Below, in pieces: positions 1 through 45,720 of a DNA stretch of 47,088 nucleotides (its first letter is position 1; each line of letters starts with the position of its first letter). The position numbers and the translations under genes were made by a program. The stretch lies in IMG/VR virus record IMGVR_UViG_3300014613_000035, positions 1 to 47,088 of that record. The stretch is one strand, 5' to 3'. Under the pieces are notes generated by a model, which was given only the letters and a program-made list of their open reading frames with translations, was not told the origin of the DNA and ran no database searches. This DNA comes from a virus. Taxonomy: Duplodnaviria; Caudoviricetes.

Positions 1-89
1 ACAAGGCGGGGGAACAGAGGCAGAGGGGGCGAGGGGGATTGATGGAGGGAGGGGGGGGGTGGGGTCGCGACACGCCCTAGTAGCTCAGC

Positions 90-128
<39 letters not shown>

Positions 129-130
129 TA

Positions 131-1132
131 TTGCGGCAACGTGCTAACTCATTTAGAAAATCAGTAACTCCCGAACGTGTAGGCCGTTGGCCCGCGAACC
201 TGATTTTGGACGGATCTCAAGAAGTCCTCGATTTGTTTCCAGAGAACGCCGGTAGTAATAGCACAACGCCTGGGACTGGAAAGAAAGGCATGTTTGGAAA
301 AAGGCCTAGCAATATAAGCCATGACAAAAATAGAGGTTCCGCCGCTCGGTTTTTTAAACAAATAAAAATTGAAAATGAATGTTCTCTCTGTTATAATTCT
401 TTGCGCGAAGAACAGAAACAAGGAGAATCATGCAAAAATACATTTGTGAACATTGCGGAAAAATATTCGAAAACTATCCGAGTAATAAAAGAAAGTATTG
501 CTCGCTTGAATGTGGAGGACTCGCACGTCGAAAAACTCGTCCTTTATGTGAAGTATGCAGCAAACCTGTGCGACACATGCGCAATCGATATTGTTCAAAA
601 TCTTGTAGCAATATCGGAAGTCCAAAAGGATGCGCGAAACCCTCTGGAATCACGAGTTATTCGGGACTTTATTACAAATTACAGAAACTGTATCCTAATC
701 CAGAACCTTGCCAGTTATGTGGAAGTAATGGACAACATAGACACCACCCCGATTACGAAAAGCCTTTTGAGATTGTTTGGCTTTGTGCTTCCTGTCATCA
801 ACGAATCCATCCAAAGAATAAAAAAGTCCGAACCAGAAAGATTCAAATACCAAGCTAAAGCCTCCAAGAAGGAGCGCAGGGAAGGCAACAAGCATCCTAC
901 AGTCAAGCCCATAAAGTTAATGGAGTACCTAGTGCGACTAGTGACACCTCCTGGCGGGGTTGTACTTGATCATTTCATGGGTTCTGGCACAACATGTTGT
1001 GCTTGTGTTAACTTAGATTTTTCATTTGTAGGTATAGAACAGGAACTAGACTCTTTTCAGATAGCGCAAGGACGAATTGCGAAAGCAATTGAAGATAAAA
1101 AGGAAGAGAAGGAAAGTAAAACTGAAATATGA
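131..1132 (+). CDS. DNA N4/N6 methyltransferase, C-terminal part (5' end lost in low-quality poly-G sequence)
   Basis: GRWPANLILDGS, SAARFF, AKASKKER..NKHPTVKPIKLMEYLVRLVTPPGGVVLDHFMGSGTT (SAM-binding FxGxG) are typical of phage beta-class MTases; about 160 extra codons lie between RFF and KYQAKAS. Confidence 0.85.
   Translation: MRQRANSFRKSVTPERVGRWPANLILDGSQEVLDLFPENAGSNSTTPGTGKKGMFGKRPSNISHDKNRGSAARFFKQIKIENECSLCYNSLREEQKQGESCKNTFVNIAEKYSKTIRVIKESIARLNVEDSHVEKLVLYVKYAANLCDTCAIDIVQNLVAISEVQKDARNPLESRVIRDFITNYRNCILIQNLASYVEVMDNIDTTPITKSLLRLFGFVLPVINESIQRIKKSEPERFKYQAKASKKERREGNKHPTVKPIKLMEYLVRLVTPPGGVVLDHFMGSGTTCCACVNLDFSFVGIEQELDSFQIAQGRIAKAIEDKKEEKESKTEI
430..858 (+). CDS. Zn-finger/HNH endonuclease nested out of frame within the methyltransferase
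   Basis: Own RBS (aggag at 421); CxxC/YCS repeats, then CQLC..HRHHPDYEKPFEIVWLCASCHQRIH HNH-type motif. Confidence 0.8.
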   Translation: MQKYICEHCGKIFENYPSNKRKYCSLECGGLARRKTRPLCEVCSKPVRHMRNRYCSKSCSNIGSPKGCAKPSGITSYSGLYYKLQKLYPNPEPCQLCGSNGQHRHHPDYEKPFEIVWLCASCHQRIHPKNKKVRTRKIQIPS

Positions 1133-1380
1133 TAAAATTAAACAGGGACGCAGTAGGCCGTAGAATTCGGCTCTTGCAGTCCGAAAATTGGGCTGCTGCT
1201 GTTAGGCCGAAGAATAAGACTGGCAGAGTCAAAGGCTGGATAACTGGCACACTTCAATTTAAGTCCTCTAAAAGTATGTATCATGTGGTATTTGATAATC
1301 AACCTTCCTGGCGAGAAGGCTTTATTTACGGAATTGGAGGAGAGGGGCACGAATCAAAGTTGTTTGATTTTATTGATTAA
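1129..1380 (+). CDS. hypothetical protein
   Basis: ATGA overlap with the MTase stop; 83 aa ORF. Confidence 0.65.
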   Translation: MIKLNRDAVGRRIRLLQSENWAAAVRPKNKTGRVKGWITGTLQFKSSKSMYHVVFDNQPSWREGFIYGIGGEGHESKLFDFID

Positions 1381-1413
1381 TTAGACTTTTTTCATTTATT
1401 TATGCTGAGTATA

Positions 1414-1442
1414 TTGACAGGTGCTTGAGTAGAGGTTATATT
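1414..1442 (+). promoter_or_regulatory. sigma70-type promoter
   Basis: TTGACA (1414-1419), 17 nt spacer, TATATT (1437-1442), AT-rich upstream. Confidence 0.75.
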
Positions 1443-1450
1443 CTTAGATA

Positions 1451-1536
1451 GGCGATGCGAGACAACAAGAATTTCGGAAATGCCTAATCGGTAGTCTCGG
1501 CCAAAAGAGGTGGTTCGACTCCACTCGTTGCCTCCA
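1451..1536 (+). ncRNA. tRNA-like RNA (acceptor stem, T-arm and CCA; non-canonical body)
   Basis: GGCGATG (1451-1457) pairs with CGTTGCC (1526-1532), discriminator T, CCA 1534-1536; T-arm GGTGG-TTCGACT-CCACT; no canonical D or anticodon arm. Confidence 0.65.
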
Positions 1537-1572
1537 TTGAAGCGGCGATTAAGGTTAAAAAGGGAGTTGATT

Positions 1573-1980
1573 ATGGAATTATCTGAATTACAAGCGTTAC
1601 TTGGTCGGCTAGGCGGCGGCATGACTTCAGGTCCCTGGGAAGCTATCCAAGCTACTAATGGTGACTGGCAGCTTGTGAAGGCTGTTAATCGTACTCCAGT
1701 TCTGATGTCGGAAGCTAATGCTCGATTTATTGTTGAGTTTCGAAACATTTTTGATGAGCTGGGAGAGATGGCAGAAACATCATATTCGAGGGAAGAGTAC
1801 GATGCTTTGAGCAAGGAGATGGAAGAGTCTGATGAGAAGGTAGGCAAGCTTGAGGAGTTGTTAGACGATTCAAAGACAGAGTGTGAAGAACTCCAAGAGG
1901 AGATTGAGGAGTTGAAAGAGCAAGCAGTAGGCCGTAGAATTCGGCTCTTGCAATTGGAAGGAGAAACTGATGAAAATTGA
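1573..1980 (+). CDS. hypothetical coiled-coil protein
   Basis: RBS agggag before ATG 1573; TSGPW motif then acidic heptads. Confidence 0.7.
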   Translation: MELSELQALLGRLGGGMTSGPWEAIQATNGDWQLVKAVNRTPVLMSEANARFIVEFRNIFDELGEMAETSYSREEYDALSKEMEESDEKVGKLEELLDDSKTECEELQEEIEELKEQAVGRRIRLLQLEGETDEN

Positions 1981-2266
1981 AGAATATTGTGAGAAGAAAA
2001 GAGAGATAGAGAATCGTGCTAAAAAAGAGATTAAACGATTAGCTTGTGAATACGCTTTATCTAAAGATAACAATAGCATCCAGGTTGGAGACATGGTTAC
2101 AGATCATATAGGAACTATTAAAGTCACTAGCATAAAAGTGTATCTTGATTTTAATAGACCTTCATGTATCTATAGAGGTCTTCAGTATACCAAACAAGGT
2201 AAACCTTTTAAAAGTGGTGAAGAACGTGATGTTTATCAATCTAATATCAAGCAAAGTAATTTATAG
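1970..2266 (+). CDS. hypothetical protein
   Basis: RBS ggaga, overlaps previous stop. Confidence 0.7.
   Translation: MKIEEYCEKKREIENRAKKEIKRLACEYALSKDNNSIQVGDMVTDHIGTIKVTSIKVYLDFNRPSCIYRGLQYTKQGKPFKSGEERDVYQSNIKQSNL
2255..2265 (+). promoter_or_regulatory. recurrent motif AGTAATTTATA (putative phage promoter), copy 1 of 5
   Basis: Identical 11-mer also at 8124, 30529, 32751 and 43621, each shortly upstream of a gene start. Confidence 0.55.
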
Positions 2267-11890: not shown

Positions 11891-12168
11891 TGGATAAGAC
11901 TAAAGCAATGAAGCTTCAAAAGTGGTTTTTCCGATATGGAATAACTAAAGCACAGATAACACTTATGGAGTTTTATAGATTCAGCTCCGATGTGGAGAAA
12001 AGATATGTTTGGCAAATATTCATTGAGTCTATAAATAAAATTTACAAGAAGGGTTACAAGGATGGTTTTGAGAAAGGTAAAGATTTACAATTAAAGAGAT
12101 GTTCTCGTACTCATATACCTAATCCTATTTTGAATTATTTAGAAGAGTTTAATGTCAGACAAGATTAA
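11890..12168 (+). CDS. hypothetical protein
   Basis: TAATG coupling. Confidence 0.55.
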   Translation: MDKTKAMKLQKWFFRYGITKAQITLMEFYRFSSDVEKRYVWQIFIESINKIYKKGYKDGFEKGKDLQLKRCSRTHIPNPILNYLEEFNVRQD

Positions 12169-14434
12169 ACCTAATCCTATCTATTTTTCTGATGAACCTG
12201 TCATAGAAGTAGTAGGGGAGAACGGTTTAGATTCCAGAATAGATTCTATTTTATCTCGGTTAGGTGCAGATGCAGTCAGTAGCGATAAAGAGTTCCAGTA
12301 TCTCAGTAAGCCAGCTCCTAACATTATAGAATGGGTAACTAGTGTTGAATACTGGAACGTTCCTTCTACATTTCAGTATTGGGGTCAATATCAGATTCTT
12401 CGAGATTTCTTTAACTTAAGATGTAGGGTTTGTAATTCCCAACATCCAGATAAGGTTGATTGTTGGGGTAAATCCAGAGCATATCTGGAGTCCGAGGTCC
12501 TCTTAGTTTGGAGTTCAGAGTATCAAGATTTTGTATGTCCCAAGTGTGGGACGACTATGCAGGAATTCATTAGTGACGGTATTGTTATACCTTATAACGA
12601 ATTGGTAACAATCATCGGGATGCGTGGAGGTAAGTCCTACACAGGTGCTCATATAGGTGGGTATCTTGAGCATGTAGCTATTACTTTAGGTATCGAGAAA
12701 CCTGGAGCATTGCAAAGGAGGCTCGCTCAGGAGAAGTCCGAGACATTTGAAATTAACTTTGTAGCATCCACCGAGAAGCAGGCGAAGAAAACTATTTACG
12801 CCAAGTTCAGGCAGATGCGTAGGAATTCTCCTTATATAAATCGTTATATGAATTGGATTAAGCGTAAGGAGCGGGCGCAGGTAGGTGTAGAAGATCCTTG
12901 GAGGTATGCTGTAACAGAAGAAGAAATTTCAGATGGTTATCTACAATTAAGGTTAAACAAGCTGTCTTCTGATTCGGCGGGTATCGCTGGAGCTACCAGG
13001 TTAGGTGCTTTTCTCGATGAGTGGGCAAGGTTAATAGATACCGAGGGTACGAGATCTGCACAAGAGTTACATAGAGTTTTGAATGCTGGTCTGAAGACTA
13101 TTAGAACAGCGGCAATGCTGGACCTAACTATTCCATTCTTTTTAGGTTCTTTAATTGGTATTACTTCGGCGGTGGCTGCTGATGATCCTGCTATGCAGAC
13201 CTATGAGAAGGCTAAGAGGGGGATTCTAAAAAAGACGTATGCTGTAAAGAAAGCTACCTGGGAGTTTAACCCATTTCAACCTCGAAGTGCATTTGATGAG
13301 GAGTTCGAGCGAGATGCTGTAGCTGCGGACAGAGACTTCGGGTCCAATCCTCCAGCGGCTGCTACACCATTTATTGAGGATAAGCTCAGGTTCTGGAAGG
13401 CTATTGACTGGGAGAAGAGGCCAATAGCTACGTTTATAAACACTTACCCAACTGATCCTACTGGAAGGGAATATGTAGGAGTAGATTTAGGTCATTGCAA
13501 GTTAGACGCGGTTAATTCTCATTATATATTTGGTGATGCTGGGTCATCATTTGATACATTCTCGCTGGCGTGCGGGCATGCAAGATGGGTTTCTATTGGA
13601 GATCTCGAAGGTGGGTTAGGTGGTGATGGTTCTATACTTGATACATCTGGAAGGATTATGCCGATGAATGTAGAGGGGGTTATTTGGCCTGAGGAGATAG
13701 GGACATTTGTTAGGCCGGATAGAGGTGCTGATGCTGAATTTTTAGATAGAATGCATCATGAACGTGTAAGGATGTTGAGGTATGGAAGTGCAACGCCGAT
13801 TAGCGGGAGACCTTATGAGCATAAAGATGAGGTTTTATGTACGGAAGTAGACTTTTGTGTACGGATCATTCCAGAAGAAGGTAGGAATATCTGGTTTGAT
13901 TCTATAATTAACATTATAGAAAAGCTTCATAGGCAGATAAAAATTGGTACGGTCTGCTTTGATAGGTGGAATTCTGTATCTACAATCCAGCAGATAAGAA
14001 GTATGGGTATCCATTCTTATGAAGTAACCTTGAAGATAGACGATTTCTTGAAATTTCGGGATATGGTTTATAACGGCAGAGTATTTATGCTACCTCCAGA
14101 GGATGATGATTTGGTTAATGTGGATGAAGATGGGAGTCTTCATATGGGCGTACCACAAGAGCATATGTCCGGTCACGGGGTTGCTTTAGTTGAAATGATG
14201 AAATTGAGTCGAAGTCCAGATCTCAAACGGGTTTATAATATGCATAAAGGTAAAGTTAGAGGTAGGGACAGTGATGATATTGCCCGATGTGTTATTGGGC
14301 TTCATCATATAATTCAGGGTAGTATAGTTGATGCGATGGCAGATCAAAAAAAGAAAAAGAATGTTCGAAGAAGGCTTGCAGCTAATGAAAATCCTATGTC
14401 AGGGAACATTTATAGGGGGCGAGGTCAGTCTTAA
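12152..14434 (+). CDS. terL: terminase large subunit
   Basis: Walker A GMRGGKS, Walker B AFLDEW, coupling motif ITSA, nuclease acidic motifs IFGDAG, CFDRWNS, DSDDIA. Confidence 0.9.
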   Translation: MSDKIKPNPIYFSDEPVIEVVGENGLDSRIDSILSRLGADAVSSDKEFQYLSKPAPNIIEWVTSVEYWNVPSTFQYWGQYQILRDFFNLRCRVCNSQHPDKVDCWGKSRAYLESEVLLVWSSEYQDFVCPKCGTTMQEFISDGIVIPYNELVTIIGMRGGKSYTGAHIGGYLEHVAITLGIEKPGALQRRLAQEKSETFEINFVASTEKQAKKTIYAKFRQMRRNSPYINRYMNWIKRKERAQVGVEDPWRYAVTEEEISDGYLQLRLNKLSSDSAGIAGATRLGAFLDEWARLIDTEGTRSAQELHRVLNAGLKTIRTAAMLDLTIPFFLGSLIGITSAVAADDPAMQTYEKAKRGILKKTYAVKKATWEFNPFQPRSAFDEEFERDAVAADRDFGSNPPAAATPFIEDKLRFWKAIDWEKRPIATFINTYPTDPTGREYVGVDLGHCKLDAVNSHYIFGDAGSSFDTFSLACGHARWVSIGDLEGGLGGDGSILDTSGRIMPMNVEGVIWPEEIGTFVRPDRGADAEFLDRMHHERVRMLRYGSATPISGRPYEHKDEVLCTEVDFCVRIIPEEGRNIWFDSIINIIEKLHRQIKIGTVCFDRWNSVSTIQQIRSMGIHSYEVTLKIDDFLKFRDMVYNGRVFMLPPEDDDLVNVDEDGSLHMGVPQEHMSGHGVALVEMMKLSRSPDLKRVYNMHKGKVRGRDSDDIARCVIGLHHIIQGSIVDAMADQKKKKNVRRRLAANENPMSGNIYRGRGQS

Positions 14435-16579: not shown

Positions 16580-17902
16580 ATGGCAGAGTCTAGTAAAATA
16601 TGTCCTAAATGTAGCAAGGCCAAAAGTCGTGTTGATTTTTCTAAAAATAAGTCTAAGAAAGATGGGTTGAGTGATTGGTGTAAGGTGTGCAGTAGCGAAT
16701 ACTCTGGGGAGTATCGTGATAAAAATAAAGATAGTTTGGCTACTAAAAGTAAAGAGTACCGTGAAAAGAATAAGGAGATTTTAGCTAAAAAAGATAAAGA
16801 GCGCAATAAGAGAGATGCTAAAAAGATAGCAGCTAGAAAAAAGATATATAATGAAAAGAATAGGGAGATAATTGCAGTTAAAAGAAGAGAAGCTTATTTA
16901 AAACGAAAAAGTATGCGTATTAAACGTATGCCAATTCGATTTCCTGGTATTAAATTTTGTACTAACTGTAAAGAAGAAAAGACTCCTGAAGATTTTCATA
17001 ATGATAAAAACACCAAGGATGGTAAGTGCTCTATCTGTGCTGAATGTAATAAAAAGCGTTCAAACGCTTACCATCTTAAAAATCGAGTGATAAGACCTCA
17101 GCCAATAAGATTTGCAGATATTAAATTTTGTCCAAAGTGTAAAGAAGAAAAATCTGAAGGGAAATTTGGAACAACCAAAAAAGGTAAGTTACGTTCTTGG
17201 TGTAATTCTTGTTTAGCGGAAGATGCTCGAATTCGAAGAGCTAATGATATTAGACCTAAAAAAGAATATCTTCCTCGGATGGAAGGCAGTAAAGAATGTT
17301 CTAAGTGTGCTATAAATAAAGAGATTACACTATTTCATGTAAATAAAAGTGCTACAGATGGAAGATGCTCACAATGTATTGAGTGTGTTAAGGAGTATGG
17401 TTCTGAGTATAGTGAGAAAAATAGGGAAAAAATTAGAAGAAGATCTGCAGAATGGTATGAAAATAATTTAGATTATGTTTTAGTTAGACAAAGAGAAAAA
17501 TATCATAATGATCCAGAGTTTAAGCTGAGTATTACTCTGAGACATATTACTTCTAGAGTAGCTAACGGCCAGAAAGCAGGTTCCTTTGTGGAGGATTTAG
17601 GTTGCTCTATTTCAGAATGTAGAATGTATCTAGAATTTCAATTCTACGCCAATTCGGAAACTGGCGAGGAGATGATTTGGGATAATCAAGGTAAAGGTAA
17701 AGGAAGCTGGCAGATCCACCATATTAAACCTTTAGCTTTTTTTGACTTAACAATTAGAGAACAATTCTTAGAGGCAGCTCACTATACGAATTTAAAACCT
17801 TTATGGCATAAAGACCATGTTAAAGAGCATTATAGGTTACGCTCTTTAGCCATAATACGAAAGACAGCATACAACCAAGACCAATCTTATATATTTTACT
17901 AG
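16580..17902 (+). CDS. HNH homing endonuclease with four Zn-finger repeats
   Basis: Repeated KxCxxC..KDG..CxxC; LGCS..WDN.G..WQIHHIKP..FDL..HYTNLKPLW. Confidence 0.8.
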   Translation: MAESSKICPKCSKAKSRVDFSKNKSKKDGLSDWCKVCSSEYSGEYRDKNKDSLATKSKEYREKNKEILAKKDKERNKRDAKKIAARKKIYNEKNREIIAVKRREAYLKRKSMRIKRMPIRFPGIKFCTNCKEEKTPEDFHNDKNTKDGKCSICAECNKKRSNAYHLKNRVIRPQPIRFADIKFCPKCKEEKSEGKFGTTKKGKLRSWCNSCLAEDARIRRANDIRPKKEYLPRMEGSKECSKCAINKEITLFHVNKSATDGRCSQCIECVKEYGSEYSEKNREKIRRRSAEWYENNLDYVLVRQREKYHNDPEFKLSITLRHITSRVANGQKAGSFVEDLGCSISECRMYLEFQFYANSETGEEMIWDNQGKGKGSWQIHHIKPLAFFDLTIREQFLEAAHYTNLKPLWHKDHVKEHYRLRSLAIIRKTAYNQDQSYIFY

Positions 17903-20579: not shown

Positions 20580-21560
20580 ATGTTATACTCCATCGTGGAG
20601 ATATGTAATATGTTGAATCTCATAATTGAAGATAATAGGTTGAATGGTGCTGTACGAGGTCTTCCTTTAGTTAAGGAATGTACTAAGTGTGGGGAATGTA
20701 AAGCTATTGATGAATTTTATAAGGCGAAGAATGGGAAGTATGGAAAACTATCTATGTGTAAAGAGTGCTACTCTAAGGATAACAAACGATATATTGCCGA
20801 GAATAATAATCCCAGAAAAACTGAGGGAACTAAAGTTTGTACTAAATGTGGTGGGGAGAAAGATGTAAGTGAGTTTTCTTCTCGTAAGAGAAATAAGGAT
20901 GGTCTTCTCGAAAAATGTAAAGCTTGTTGTGCTGAATATAATAAAGAAAAGAAAGAACGATCTGTTTTAGTTACTGAAGGAATTAAAGCTTGTTCTAGAT
21001 GCGGAAAAGAAAAGTCAGTATTGGAATTTGGAAAATTATCGACAAGTTCTGATGGTTTAAATTATTGGTGTAAAGAATGTGAGAATAAACGAAAGAAAGT
21101 ACAGCGTACTAAACACCGTGTTAAACATTTGAATTATGCTAAGATGCATAGAGCTGAAATATGGGCAAATGAAAACAAAAGAAGGAAAACTGATATTACC
21201 TATAAACTGGCTTGTAGTCTTAGAACAAGGACTAATCTTGCAGTAAAGAAGGGCTGGAAGTCTGGTTCTGCAGTCCGAGATTTAGGATGCTCAATTGAAT
21301 TCTTTAAGGAGTACTTAGAATCTCAATTTACTGAAGGTATGACTTGGGATAATTGGGGTCGGGGTCATGGTTGTTGGAATATAGATCATATAATTCCGTT
21401 AGTTTCTTTTGATTTAACAATAAGAGAACAATTCCTAGAAGCAGCCCATTATACCAATATGCAGCCTTTATGGTTTGAAGATAATATGTCTAAAGGTAGT
21501 AAACTAGATTGGATTAGAAGTACTCAGCATGATGAAGTCCAAGACTATATATTTTATTAA
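20580..21560 (+). CDS. HNH homing endonuclease with three Zn-finger repeats (start may be 20609)
   Basis: KECTKC/KVCTKC/KACSRC; LGCS..GMTWDNWG..WNIDHIIP..HYTNMQPLW..DN..KG. Confidence 0.85.
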   Translation: MLYSIVEICNMLNLIIEDNRLNGAVRGLPLVKECTKCGECKAIDEFYKAKNGKYGKLSMCKECYSKDNKRYIAENNNPRKTEGTKVCTKCGGEKDVSEFSSRKRNKDGLLEKCKACCAEYNKEKKERSVLVTEGIKACSRCGKEKSVLEFGKLSTSSDGLNYWCKECENKRKKVQRTKHRVKHLNYAKMHRAEIWANENKRRKTDITYKLACSLRTRTNLAVKKGWKSGSAVRDLGCSIEFFKEYLESQFTEGMTWDNWGRGHGCWNIDHIIPLVSFDLTIREQFLEAAHYTNMQPLWFEDNMSKGSKLDWIRSTQHDEVQDYIFY

Positions 21561-28709: not shown

Positions 28710-29976
28710 AGTCGGGGGATTCCTAATTCACGGAGAACAGGGAGACAACATCGAAATGCTATCGCTGCTTACATTCTCTCCAAAGGCTGAAACCGCCAGC
28801 CCGGCGGCCAAGACGTTGATCGCCGCATTTCGATCTCTGTCATGTAAAGCGTTACACTTTGGACACGTCCAAGATCGAATATCAAGTGGCAACCCATCGA
28901 CTATGTGTCCACAACTTGAGCAACGTTTACTAGATGGGAAGTATGTGTCTATTCTGACAAATGTTCTTCCCGCCCAGGATGCTTTATACTCCAACTGGCG
29001 AACGAACTCGCCCCAACTGGCATCAGCAATGCACTTGCTCAATTTAGGATTGCGGATCATGTTCTTTACTTTCAGGGATTCAGCGCAAACAACTTGGTTC
29101 TCGTTGATTAGCTTGCGAGACAACTTGTGTAAATTATCCAACCGACAATCGGAGATTTTCGCATGAACACGCGCAACCTTCAGCCTTGCCTTGTCTCGAT
29201 TTCGACTTCCAAGTTTTTTCTTGGCGAGTCGTCTTTGAGCTTTGGCAAGTTTGGCAGCGTATTTCTTAGTATAGCGAGGATTGCCAGTCTTGAAGCCTTT
29301 GTCAGTAACGAACAAATCATGAATGCCCAAGTCAATTCCAACTATGGAATTAACAACGGGCAATGTTTTTGGTTCAAATTCACAAAGACACGAAACGAAA
29401 TACCGTCCCGCTGGATCTTTGGAAATAGTGATCGTGGACGGATGCGAGGGAAGATCGTGACTCCAACGAACGTTCAAAGGAGTCTTGGACTTCGCCATGT
29501 ACAAACGACCGTCAATATATTTGAATCCACTGCGAGTAAACTCAGCAGATTGGTGATCTGTTTTCTTCTTAAAGGTAGGGTATCTTGTACGCCCTTCAAA
29601 GAAGTTTTTAAAAGCTGTTTGTTGGTGACGTATGGATTGTTGCAAGGCAATAGAAGATACGTCATTCAGCCACAAATATTCAGGAAGTTTTTTAATGGCC
29701 GTGAGTTCGGCGCTGGCTTCCACGTACCCGATTTTTTCTTGGGTCTCGTAAAAGGCATCACAGCGCCAACGAAGAATCGAGTTGTATACGAACCGAACAC
29801 AACCGAACGTTTGAGCAAGCAATTGAGTCTGTTCACTCGTTGGGTAGAATCGGTATTTGTATGCTCGCTTATTCATGCCTTACATTATTTCATAGATTTT
29901 GTAAGTTGTCAACAAGAAAGGAGAGCGGCGATTCATTCCCATGGATAAATCCAGGGGTATCCTCGCCTGAAATTCG
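28689..29976 (-). mobile_element. IS200/IS605-family tnpB-only (IS1341-like) element
   Basis: Left-end hairpin cccctggatttatccatggg preceded by GATA; right-end hairpin ending TCAA preceded by GAAT; flanking TTCAT; no tnpA. Confidence 0.9.
28728..29876 (-). CDS. tnpB: RNA-guided nuclease TnpB
   Basis: MNKRAYKYRFYP; RuvC GIDLG / VCAESL / DRDRNAAIN all intact; CSSC..CPKC Zn finger; TTGACA promoter element inside the left end. Confidence 0.95.
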   Translation of the reverse strand: MNKRAYKYRFYPTSEQTQLLAQTFGCVRFVYNSILRWRCDAFYETQEKIGYVEASAELTAIKKLPEYLWLNDVSSIALQQSIRHQQTAFKNFFEGRTRYPTFKKKTDHQSAEFTRSGFKYIDGRLYMAKSKTPLNVRWSHDLPSHPSTITISKDPAGRYFVSCLCEFEPKTLPVVNSIVGIDLGIHDLFVTDKGFKTGNPRYTKKYAAKLAKAQRRLAKKKLGSRNRDKARLKVARVHAKISDCRLDNLHKLSRKLINENQVVCAESLKVKNMIRNPKLSKCIADASWGEFVRQLEYKASWAGRTFVRIDTYFPSSKRCSSCGHIVDGLPLDIRSWTCPKCNALHDRDRNAAINVLAAGLAVSAFGENVSSDSISMLSPCSP

Positions 29977-44952: not shown

Positions 44953-45720
44953 ATGAGAGTCTCAGGAATTTCCAATAAGGGTTTTAGTAGGATTGCTCAA
45001 AGGGTAAGCAAGACTGCTGGTACAGAACCTCGTGTGTATGTGGGAACTTACGGAAAATATAACTCTGGAAGTATTGATGGAGCTTGGCTAGATTTGAGTG
45101 ATTATTCAAGTTTAGAAGAGTTCTACGAGGCTGCTAGAGAGCTTCATAAGGATGAAGAAGATCCTGAGTTTATGTTCCAGGATCACGAAGGTATTCCTGA
45201 AGGTATGATTAGTGAATCTCATATAGATCCTGCATTCTTTGATTTCTTGGCGCAGACTTCTGATTGGGATGATGAGCAAAGAGAAGCCTTCGATATTTTC
45301 ATGGAGTATATGTGGTCTGGAAGTGGTGAGCCTGATGATGTTACCAATGCTCTTACTGCGTTTGAAGATTCCTATCGAGGAGTCTATAATAGTATGGAAG
45401 ATTATGCTCTTGAGTTTGTAGAGGATATGGGAGGTCCTGAGAATATAAGTAATCCTGAATTTTATTTTGATTATGAGCAATTCGGAAGAGATTTGGGCTT
45501 TGATGGTTATTACGAGGAAGAGGGTAGTGTTTATGATCAAGATGGAGAAGAAACTGGGTATAGTACTATAGAAGAGATGATCGATAGCTGGATGGATGAT
45601 GGTGTAATTGCTGGTGAAACTATGTCTCGTTATTTTGATTATGAGAAATTTGGGAGAGATCTCGAATTAGGTGGCGATATGTATTTTAGAAATGGCCATG
45701 TTTTCGATAATAATTATTAG
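44953..45720 (+). CDS. ardA: ArdA-family anti-restriction protein with shared N-terminal leader
   Basis: VYVGTYGKYNSGSIDGAWLDL..DEEDPEFMFQDHEGIP; FEDSYRGVY; YFDYExFGRDL twice. Confidence 0.9.
   Translation: MRVSGISNKGFSRIAQRVSKTAGTEPRVYVGTYGKYNSGSIDGAWLDLSDYSSLEEFYEAARELHKDEEDPEFMFQDHEGIPEGMISESHIDPAFFDFLAQTSDWDDEQREAFDIFMEYMWSGSGEPDDVTNALTAFEDSYRGVYNSMEDYALEFVEDMGGPENISNPEFYFDYEQFGRDLGFDGYYEEEGSVYDQDGEETGYSTIEEMIDSWMDDGVIAGETMSRYFDYEKFGRDLELGGDMYFRNGHVFDNNY

Follow-up and report, generated by a model that had tools for sequence, protein, structure and literature searches.

A widespread family of probable splicing-free homing elements: an HNH-type nuclease gene nested out of frame in an open methyltransferase gene of a phage contig

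Hidden out-of-frame insertions of HNH endonuclease genes in the DNA methylases of actinophages have been described by Gosselin et al. (2023, PMC9957025). The ShiLan domain, which was aligned from 10 phages by Arsenault, Gosselin and Gogarten (2025, PMC11855218), is an out-of-frame HNH insertion in a methylase with an open frame, with no signs of splicing and no ribosome binding site (RBS). Leaderless initiation was proposed for the ShiLan nuclease, which begins with a GTG 18 nt into the insertion and ends with a stop within its last four bases (PMC11855218). The 2025 paper left open the removal of the insert and the translation of the hidden nuclease, and in its available portions reported neither a test for selection on host-frame residues nor a CxxC pair (PMC11855218). 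Within the literature surveyed, such inserts were described only by three papers of the Gogarten group, the supplements of which might list the family analyzed here. The out-of-frame layout itself is no longer surprising; it was published in 2025, and the family presented here appears to be a separate and widespread one with another site and another nuclease.

Other mobile nucleases provide partial parallels. For T4 I-TevI and segB and for Aeh1 mobE, internal promoters are combined with hairpins that hide the RBS in longer transcripts; the T4-type nucleases are intron-encoded, free-standing or host-splitting and are read from T4 middle or late promoters (PMC2988022). Aeh1 mobE in nrdA and T4 mobA in gene 60 resemble the present locus as HNH genes in a host gene without an intron core, but they split the host into separate coding regions, whereas the host frame analyzed here is continuous (PMC2988022). 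Inteins with an out-of-frame endonuclease also share an endonuclease in frame 3 and an open host frame with this locus; they differ in having splicing domains that remove the insert, none of which were found here.

The DNA analyzed, referred to as the window, is a single 47 kb phage contig (47,088 nucleotides at its full length) with terminase, portal, protease and major head genes. Frame +2 of the window has no stop between 2 and 1132; it codes for the second half of an N6/N4 methyltransferase, in which SAARFFKQ is followed by PERFKYQAKASKKER, then HPTVKP and then DHFMGSG; the product matches Pfam N6_N4_Mtase (PF01555) with an E value of 2.9e-20. Beta-class identity (DPPY before FxGxG and a beta-class fold) was established on the full-length homolog L011, with a predicted fold like those of M.BceJIV, CcrM and RsrI, the window being without the N-terminal half. 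Bases 1-126 are G-rich, with a 35-G run at 92-126, and this contig start is probably a sequencing or assembly artefact. The features of the locus are as follows.

128-355, plus strand: 5' part of the methyltransferase (GRWPANL to SAARFF), beta-class N6/N4; gene start and DPPY lie off the contig
356-847, plus strand: dual-coded insert of 164 codons without a stop in the methyltransferase frame, with the common RFF/Y allele as reference
359-838, plus strand: alternative limits of the dual-coded insert, 160 codons, if the empty allele was RFF-KRFK-Y
369-397, plus strand: predicted sigma-70 promoter of the nuclease, TTGAAA - 17 nt - TG.TATAAT (11/12, extended -10)
376-434, plus strand: predicted RNA hairpin pairing the nuclease RBS (z = -2.33)
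380-391, plus strand: host-frame CxxC no. 1 (CSLC), upstream of the nuclease ORF, in 51/73 copies
421-426, plus strand: Shine-Dalgarno AGGAGA of the nuclease
430-858, plus strand: nuclease ORF, ATG start, 142 aa, in frame +1 of the window and frame 3 relative to the methyltransferase
569-580, plus strand: host-frame CxxC no. 2 (CDTC), written over nuclease V47-R48-H49-M50-R51
707-766, plus strand: host-frame Leu118 and Leu137, maintained through CCT codons at nuclease Pro93 and Pro112
848-1132, plus strand: 3' part of the methyltransferase (YQAKASKKER, HPTVKP, SAM-binding FMGSG), from the frame +2 translation, Pfam and PHROG

Several further features were noted in the window. A second strong sigma-70-like promoter (1414-1442, plus strand; TTGACA-17-TATATT) follows a terminator-like stem at 1303-1319, and a direct repeat of about 29 nt (gcagtaggccgtagaattcggctcttgca) occurs in two downstream ORFs, at 1150-1178 and about 1925-1953. 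Free-standing ORFs at 16580-17902 and 20580-21560 (plus strand) match PHROG endonuclease VII/endonuclease families. An IS605 OrfB/TnpB-type gene at 28728-29876 (minus strand) runs opposite to the phage genes and is overlapped by a 261-codon plus-strand ORF (29163-29948) without a family match. The terminase large subunit (12152-14434, plus strand) is unusually long at 760 aa and has no Pfam match at E 1e-4, and an ArdA anti-restriction protein is encoded at 44953-45720 (plus strand).

The preliminary description of this DNA, made from the sequence alone, had proposed an HNH gene nested out of frame in a methyltransferase gene that stays open, and this layout is confirmed, with the nuclease at 430-858 inside the open frame 2-1132. 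The same description took the nuclease for a complete Zn-finger/HNH ORF with its own RBS; the AGGAGA sequence, the zinc modules and the PHROG matches bear this out, but the stop codon lies outside the insert and the canonical Asn is lacking. The protein comprises two N-terminal Cys4 modules and a CxxC-HRHHPDY-WLCxxCHxxxH HNH-type domain, matches PHROG 1271 'HNH endonuclease' (E 4.6e-14) and PHROG 2340 'endonuclease' (E 3.4e-12), and has atlas neighbours that carry PF01844/PF13392. The 142-aa sequence gave no match to the Pfam HNH model, and a PDB sequence search with the nuclease profile returned nothing below E 0.3. The HNH motif has a canonical Asn between its His motifs; here that region reads HHPDYxKPxxIVWLC without the Asn, and position 112 is P in 66/73 copies. 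The invariance of HRHHxDY and WLCxxCH is partly a product of the search patterns used. The nuclease ATG lies 74 nt into the insert, and the stop codon (856-858) is in host sequence, 8 nt past the insert; in homologous copies, too, the stop is usually supplied by the host codons directly downstream.

The insert sits between SAARFF and YQAKAS of the methyltransferase. In the commonest insert-free form, ASRFF is directly joined to YCAKASK.ER, and one insert-free allele (L228) reads RFFKRFKYQAKASKKER, which is the two junctions of the window joined exactly. Among 120 insert-free proteins, 74 are without a spacer, 10 have a four-residue loop, RFF-KRFK/PVFK-YQAK (RFF-xxF(K/R)-Y type), and 34 were not parsed by the pattern, nearly all of them having none by eye. 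This alignment to insertion-free homologs, a check put forward in the preliminary description, fixed the boundaries with two choices that depend on the empty allele; the earlier statement that the motif is split by about 160 codons holds in that the insert is real, with its exact limits being 356-847 (164 codons) or 359-838 (160 codons). The first residue of the insert is K, F, M or Y, its end is FL, LI or FI, and the next residue is Y or F. Codons recur at the two ends (TTT AAA at 353-358, TTC AAA at 842-847); a target-site duplication as the source of the repeated RF motif was considered and set aside because insert-free RFF-xxF(K/R)-YQ alleles exist. Both boundary motifs were found in 74/79 nuclease cluster representatives and in 119/145 proteins from a host-frame search. 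Nuclease-free alleles with a loop of 14 residues (L204:664-1947) or of four residues (L228:3-812) represent either targets or scars of loss.

Compared with ShiLan, the locus shares the methyltransferase family (N-terminal part of L011 against ShiLan gp65, E 1.5e-51) and the repetition of a host motif at the insert end; it also shares the open host frame with the nuclease in frame 3, the patchy distribution and the lack of intron or intein signs. The two differ in their site, with ShiLan inserted at ALKP.YEP and gp65 being empty at the window's site (RFF-PVFR-Y), and in their nucleases, of which only a zinc module aligns. A host-frame profile of the window family had no match to the ShiLan insert. 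The ShiLan nuclease is described as having a GTG start and no RBS, whereas the window nuclease has an ATG, an RBS, a predicted promoter and a hairpin, and the ShiLan alignment comprises 10 phages against 79 clusters at 90% identity for the window family in the fetched loci. As judged from these comparisons, the window element works like a ShiLan-type hidden HNH element, but lies outside the ShiLan sequence family. ORF87 of Staphylococcus phage K has a similar HHPDYxKP...WLCxxCH nuclease-like domain (50% over 40 columns; HHalign probability 97.5 over the same number), but is carried by a predicted group I intron and is not dual-coded. Two proteins of the phage K polymerase introns have been named I-KsaII and I-KsaIII (PMC5618024), and from gene order ORF87 would correspond to I-KsaII.

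Related inserts were observed at other positions of the same methyltransferase family. A different nuclease (L216:1089-1514, plus strand; Pfam HNH_3, E 1.1e-18) is nested in frame 3 at a third site, between KASRKER and HPTQKP, with the host frame open and with CxC and CxxC at the two insert ends. A contig-end fragment (L234:1-150, plus strand) looks like a frame-3 insert that ends before H.TVKP, again with an open host frame. In L223 (1-940), an intein-like insert recognized by eye precedes SGFPK, which is where ShiLan gp65 carries its intein; the nuclease site is empty.

A profile built from 13 nuclease sequences yielded 164 loci, to which 3 loci obtained earlier were added; of the resulting 168 sequences including the window, 167 have a nuclease match and 130 score at least 100 bits, a set that includes duplicates and the window's own contig. 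Methyltransferase sequence lies beside the nuclease in 130/130 of these close homologs and on both sides in 108. The homolog search used the nuclease frame and therefore did not select for an open host frame. The preliminary description had suggested examining stop avoidance across homologous inserts, with routine stops as the contrary outcome; the methyltransferase frame is stop-free across the nuclease match in 129/130, the exception (L033) being frameshifted. Of 34 weaker, free-standing matches without methyltransferase, 29 contain stops in the corresponding frame, the matched stretches being shorter. The 130 homologs form 79 clusters at 90% identity, of which 74 have both boundaries (L039, L119, L130, L137 and L161 being without both). 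Across 73 de-replicated inserts of 115-212 codons, 0 host-frame stops were seen against 227 expected; the frameshifted L033 (the 74th copy, with 2 stops) was excluded from this count. For the window copy alone, 2.8 stops are expected when the nuclease protein is kept constant and synonymous codons follow the codon usage of the window, and P(0) is 0.03, making its own open frame unlikely only to a mild degree. Two copies, L146 and L166, have a broken nuclease frame together with an open host frame.

The host-frame translation search, a profile-free search of 50% representatives, gave 145 clusters at 50% identity. The host-frame insert queried against viral contigs found no relative. Among close annotated phages, none with the element was found, and one unannotated record covered 89% of the nuclease. 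Four named phages with matches reaching the insert region have methyltransferase ORFs of 216-374 codons, and the methyltransferases of two of these, when translated, have no long insert at the SxRFF-Y site. Six loci (L021, L034, L042, L046, L047 and L167) carry short inserts of 115-123 codons with an open host frame, without the first zinc module of the nuclease and without either host-frame CxxC. In L049/L002 (the same contig), a truncated relic was seen: all that remains is the nuclease's 3' end and a 3' portion of the methyltransferase, lying next to unrelated genes.

Selection on the host-frame protein was assessed with synonymous nuclease codons that are unable to create host-frame stops. 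Nuclease Pro93 is CCT in 64/67 copies and Pro112 in 65/66, each giving a host-frame Leu, and Pro46 is CCT in 45/51. On the tree, 3 changes occurred at Pro93 and 1 at Pro112 versus 13-21 at four other Pro sites; by contrast, Pro91 prefers CCA (47/70) and Pro107 prefers CCC/CCA, and the single-coded Pro codons of HPTVKP in the same genes are evenly used (26/19/9/7 and 26/15/14/6). The fixation of CCT does not stem from low divergence, since two-fold sites are near saturation. Leu118 falls in a long helix predicted by the insert model. From the fixation of host-frame Leu and Cys codons, translation within the methyltransferase, with selection at the protein level, is the most likely fate of the insert, as opposed to splicing or bypass. 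The preliminary description had offered removal by splicing or ribosomal bypass as an alternative to dual coding; this part finds no support, given that selection acts on the amino acids which the insert encodes in the methyltransferase frame.

The two host-frame CxxC motifs tend to occur together. Both are present in 51 of 73 copies, with neither in 18, the second only in 4 and the first only in 0; in 119 proteins the corresponding numbers are 82, 17, 20 and 0. Val47 of the nuclease is GTG, which gives a host-frame Cys, in 51/51 copies with CxxC no. 1, compared with 4 of the 13 V/I copies without it. Use of GTG47 and ATG50 as internal start codons was also considered and rejected, as it would not explain the link to CxxC no. 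1. The covariation rests on 6-9 changes, for which independent-pair tests gave p values of 0.125-1, never in the wrong direction and not significant (median p 0.25 in the 73-copy set, p 0.5 in the 119 proteins). The codons of CxxC no. 1 are TGT/TGC in ratios of 26/25 and 33/18, and its conservation may be partly at the nucleotide level because it overlaps the predicted promoter and hairpin arm. The simplest reading, and one that we favor somewhat, is that the two CxxC bind a single zinc and would hold the insert together, leaving the enzyme core able to fold. In AlphaFold models of the full protein, the insert has a pLDDT of about 40-58 and the methyltransferase core is mostly above 80; the insert alone is modeled as two long helices (mean pLDDT 63.6, pTM 0.32), with no closed zinc site and with CxxC no. 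2 placed mid-helix. A fold search with this low-confidence model returned generic helical matches (best Z 7.9) and is uninformative on the novelty of the fold.

The predicted nuclease promoter lies in the first 45 bases of the insert. Among homologous insert heads, a strong -10 was found in 34/71 versus 6/69, 1/69 and 0/71 in control stretches, the remaining 37/71 heads having none; three copies were omitted from this survey, and start codons were chosen by a heuristic. In 12 heads an extended -10 lies six bases before the ATG, which fits a leaderless mRNA, and these family members appear to use this mode. In the window, the 5' arm of the predicted hairpin is upstream of the predicted transcription start, so that the hairpin would form only in the long methyltransferase mRNA; the RBS and ATG have predicted unpaired probabilities of 0.16-0.23 in the long and 0.78-0.84 in the short transcript. 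In 23/30 leadered copies, the RBS is more strongly occluded by the native upstream sequence than by shuffled sequence (p 2e-4, the copies not being independent), and singly the hairpin reaches p<=0.05 against shuffles in 9/30. It is rather likely that a separate short transcript, driven by the promoter at 369-397, serves for production of the nuclease, with the hairpin of the long mRNA hiding the nuclease RBS. The T4-type control of I-TevI/II/III, segB and Aeh1 mobE likewise places a promoter just upstream of the nuclease and hides the RBS only in longer transcripts, but the window promoter is sigma-70-like and is itself coding sequence, and its arrangement is only predicted. The preliminary description had been silent on the internal promoter, the RBS hairpin, the host-frame CxxC pair and the 2025 publication (PMC11855218).

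A methyltransferase tree was built from host parts only, with 49 invaded and 50 empty alleles. The invaded/empty state changes 12 times on this tree, at least 9 of these changes being forced by well-supported branches, and shuffled labels need 33 changes; the invaded state is therefore clustered without forming one group. Inserts that are 99-100% identical occur in L010/L111, L015/L134, L107/L109 and L115/L116, with flanks 30-450 nt away that are mostly 43-81% identical, as homing predicts; some of these pairs could be assembly chimeras in part, and the nearest flanks are variable loops. Additionally, in a contig from run X5 covering 235-558, 32 differences from the window were counted, 25 of which are listed at 271-344, upstream of the insert. 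Family-wide, identity is 50% for the nuclease, 52% for the C-terminal and 42% for the N-terminal host part, and the nuclease is not more conserved than the C-terminal host part. By this comparison, the insert appears to move between divergent methyltransferase alleles, with a patchy, disjunct distribution and, in recent transfers, probably less divergence than its host. The stop avoidance, the patchy spread and the identical inserts in divergent flanks combined lend support to the earlier proposal of a homing element in which dual coding protects the host gene.

Alternative explanations were weighed against a splicing-free homing element. Removal at the RNA level by an unrecognized self-splicing or host-assisted intron, with the open frame as a fallback, would be in keeping with the position of phage K ORF87, the nearest named relative of the nuclease domain, inside a joined DNA polymerase gene with introns predicted as group I (PMC5618024). 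Two further points in its favor are a U as the last base of the 5' exon and the recurrence of the RF motif at the 3' boundary. This explanation is nonetheless highly improbable: only 74 nt of the window insert are free of the nuclease ORF, which overruns the 3' boundary here and in most copies, the conserved terminal G is absent (the last base is A in 56/74, or mixed with G in 22/74 at the other boundary), and the selection on host-frame Leu and Cys would make no sense for an insert removed by splicing. The covariance search suggested earlier agrees with the original impression that no group I intron core is present, with only sub-threshold chance matches to Rfam in window 1-2000 at E up to 10 and none at gathering scores in 10 homologous loci. 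Contigs of four DNA runs, of patchy coverage, contained no joint that skips the insert. Removal of the insert from the protein by a Hint-independent, intein-like reaction at the conserved host-frame Cys was judged very improbable, as was a ribosome hop between the RF/K codon sets repeated at the two ends. True inteins with an out-of-frame endonuclease do exist (bioRxiv 10.1101/2025.01.02.630785), but the insert ends here are without the intein residues (N-terminal C/S, C-terminal (H)N, +1 C/S/T), in line with the preliminary description, in which no intein ends were recognized, no Hint family match was obtained in Pfam or PHROG, and the insert model is all-helical, at low confidence. T4 gene 60 is translated by a bypass mechanism, and known ribosome hops span about 50 nt and skip a stop codon; here there is no in-frame stop after the take-off site and the gap would be about 490 nt, unlike the gene 60 bypass. 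The short RFF-xxF(K/R)-Y loop of insert-free alleles (10/120) also means that the repeat need not be a hop signal.

An insert-bearing methyltransferase that is inactive, or a host-frame product with a new job such as binding or restraining the nuclease, would have its open frame kept for that job or for translation of downstream genes. Such a reading would accommodate the poor folding of the insert in models, a few broken loci (L033, L039, L130) and the reported dispensability of the methyltransferase in actinophages (PMC11855218). It is improbable all the same, considering that most invaded genes retain the catalytic and SAM motifs (DPPY in 45/50, FxGSG in 65/71), that the core is mostly above pLDDT 80 with the insert present, and that in L146 and L166 the host frame has persisted although the nuclease is interrupted. 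A chance overlap or an assembly artefact may be given next to no weight: avoidance of about 3 stops per copy suffices (P = 0.03 for the window) and the contig begins with G-rich junk, but 129/130 homologs are open, and a contig of run X2, from a different study, is identical to the window over 297-1500. Overall, we give a probability of about 80% to a splicing-free homing element, the insert of which is read through and not removed.

The nuclease gene occupies one fixed site in a large phage N6/N4 methyltransferase family, a variable loop after SxRFF, in a frame that leaves the host open. By analogy with known homing endonucleases, the nuclease would cut or nick the empty allele, and repair would copy the insert in. 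There is strong reason to expect that the ribosome reads through the insert, giving a methyltransferase enlarged by a domain of about 160 residues, and selection would keep the host frame free of stops along with the helix-building Leu residues and the two CxxC motifs. Whether this second frame amounts to an overprinted 'tolerance domain', a selected, zinc-tied helical hairpin that allows folding of the host enzyme despite the retained insert, is an even question on the present evidence. If true, such a domain would give homing genes a third means of sparing the host gene, in addition to splicing of RNA or of protein, and about 60 bases at the insert head would serve at once as CxxC protein, promoter and RBS-hiding hairpin.

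The window family is large enough for both questions left by ShiLan to be tested from sequence, and the promoter and hairpin present a candidate route to nuclease expression. Nested nucleases of this type are easily missed when annotation takes only the longest ORF. The family also offers a natural series for following how a new protein domain may arise in an alternative frame.
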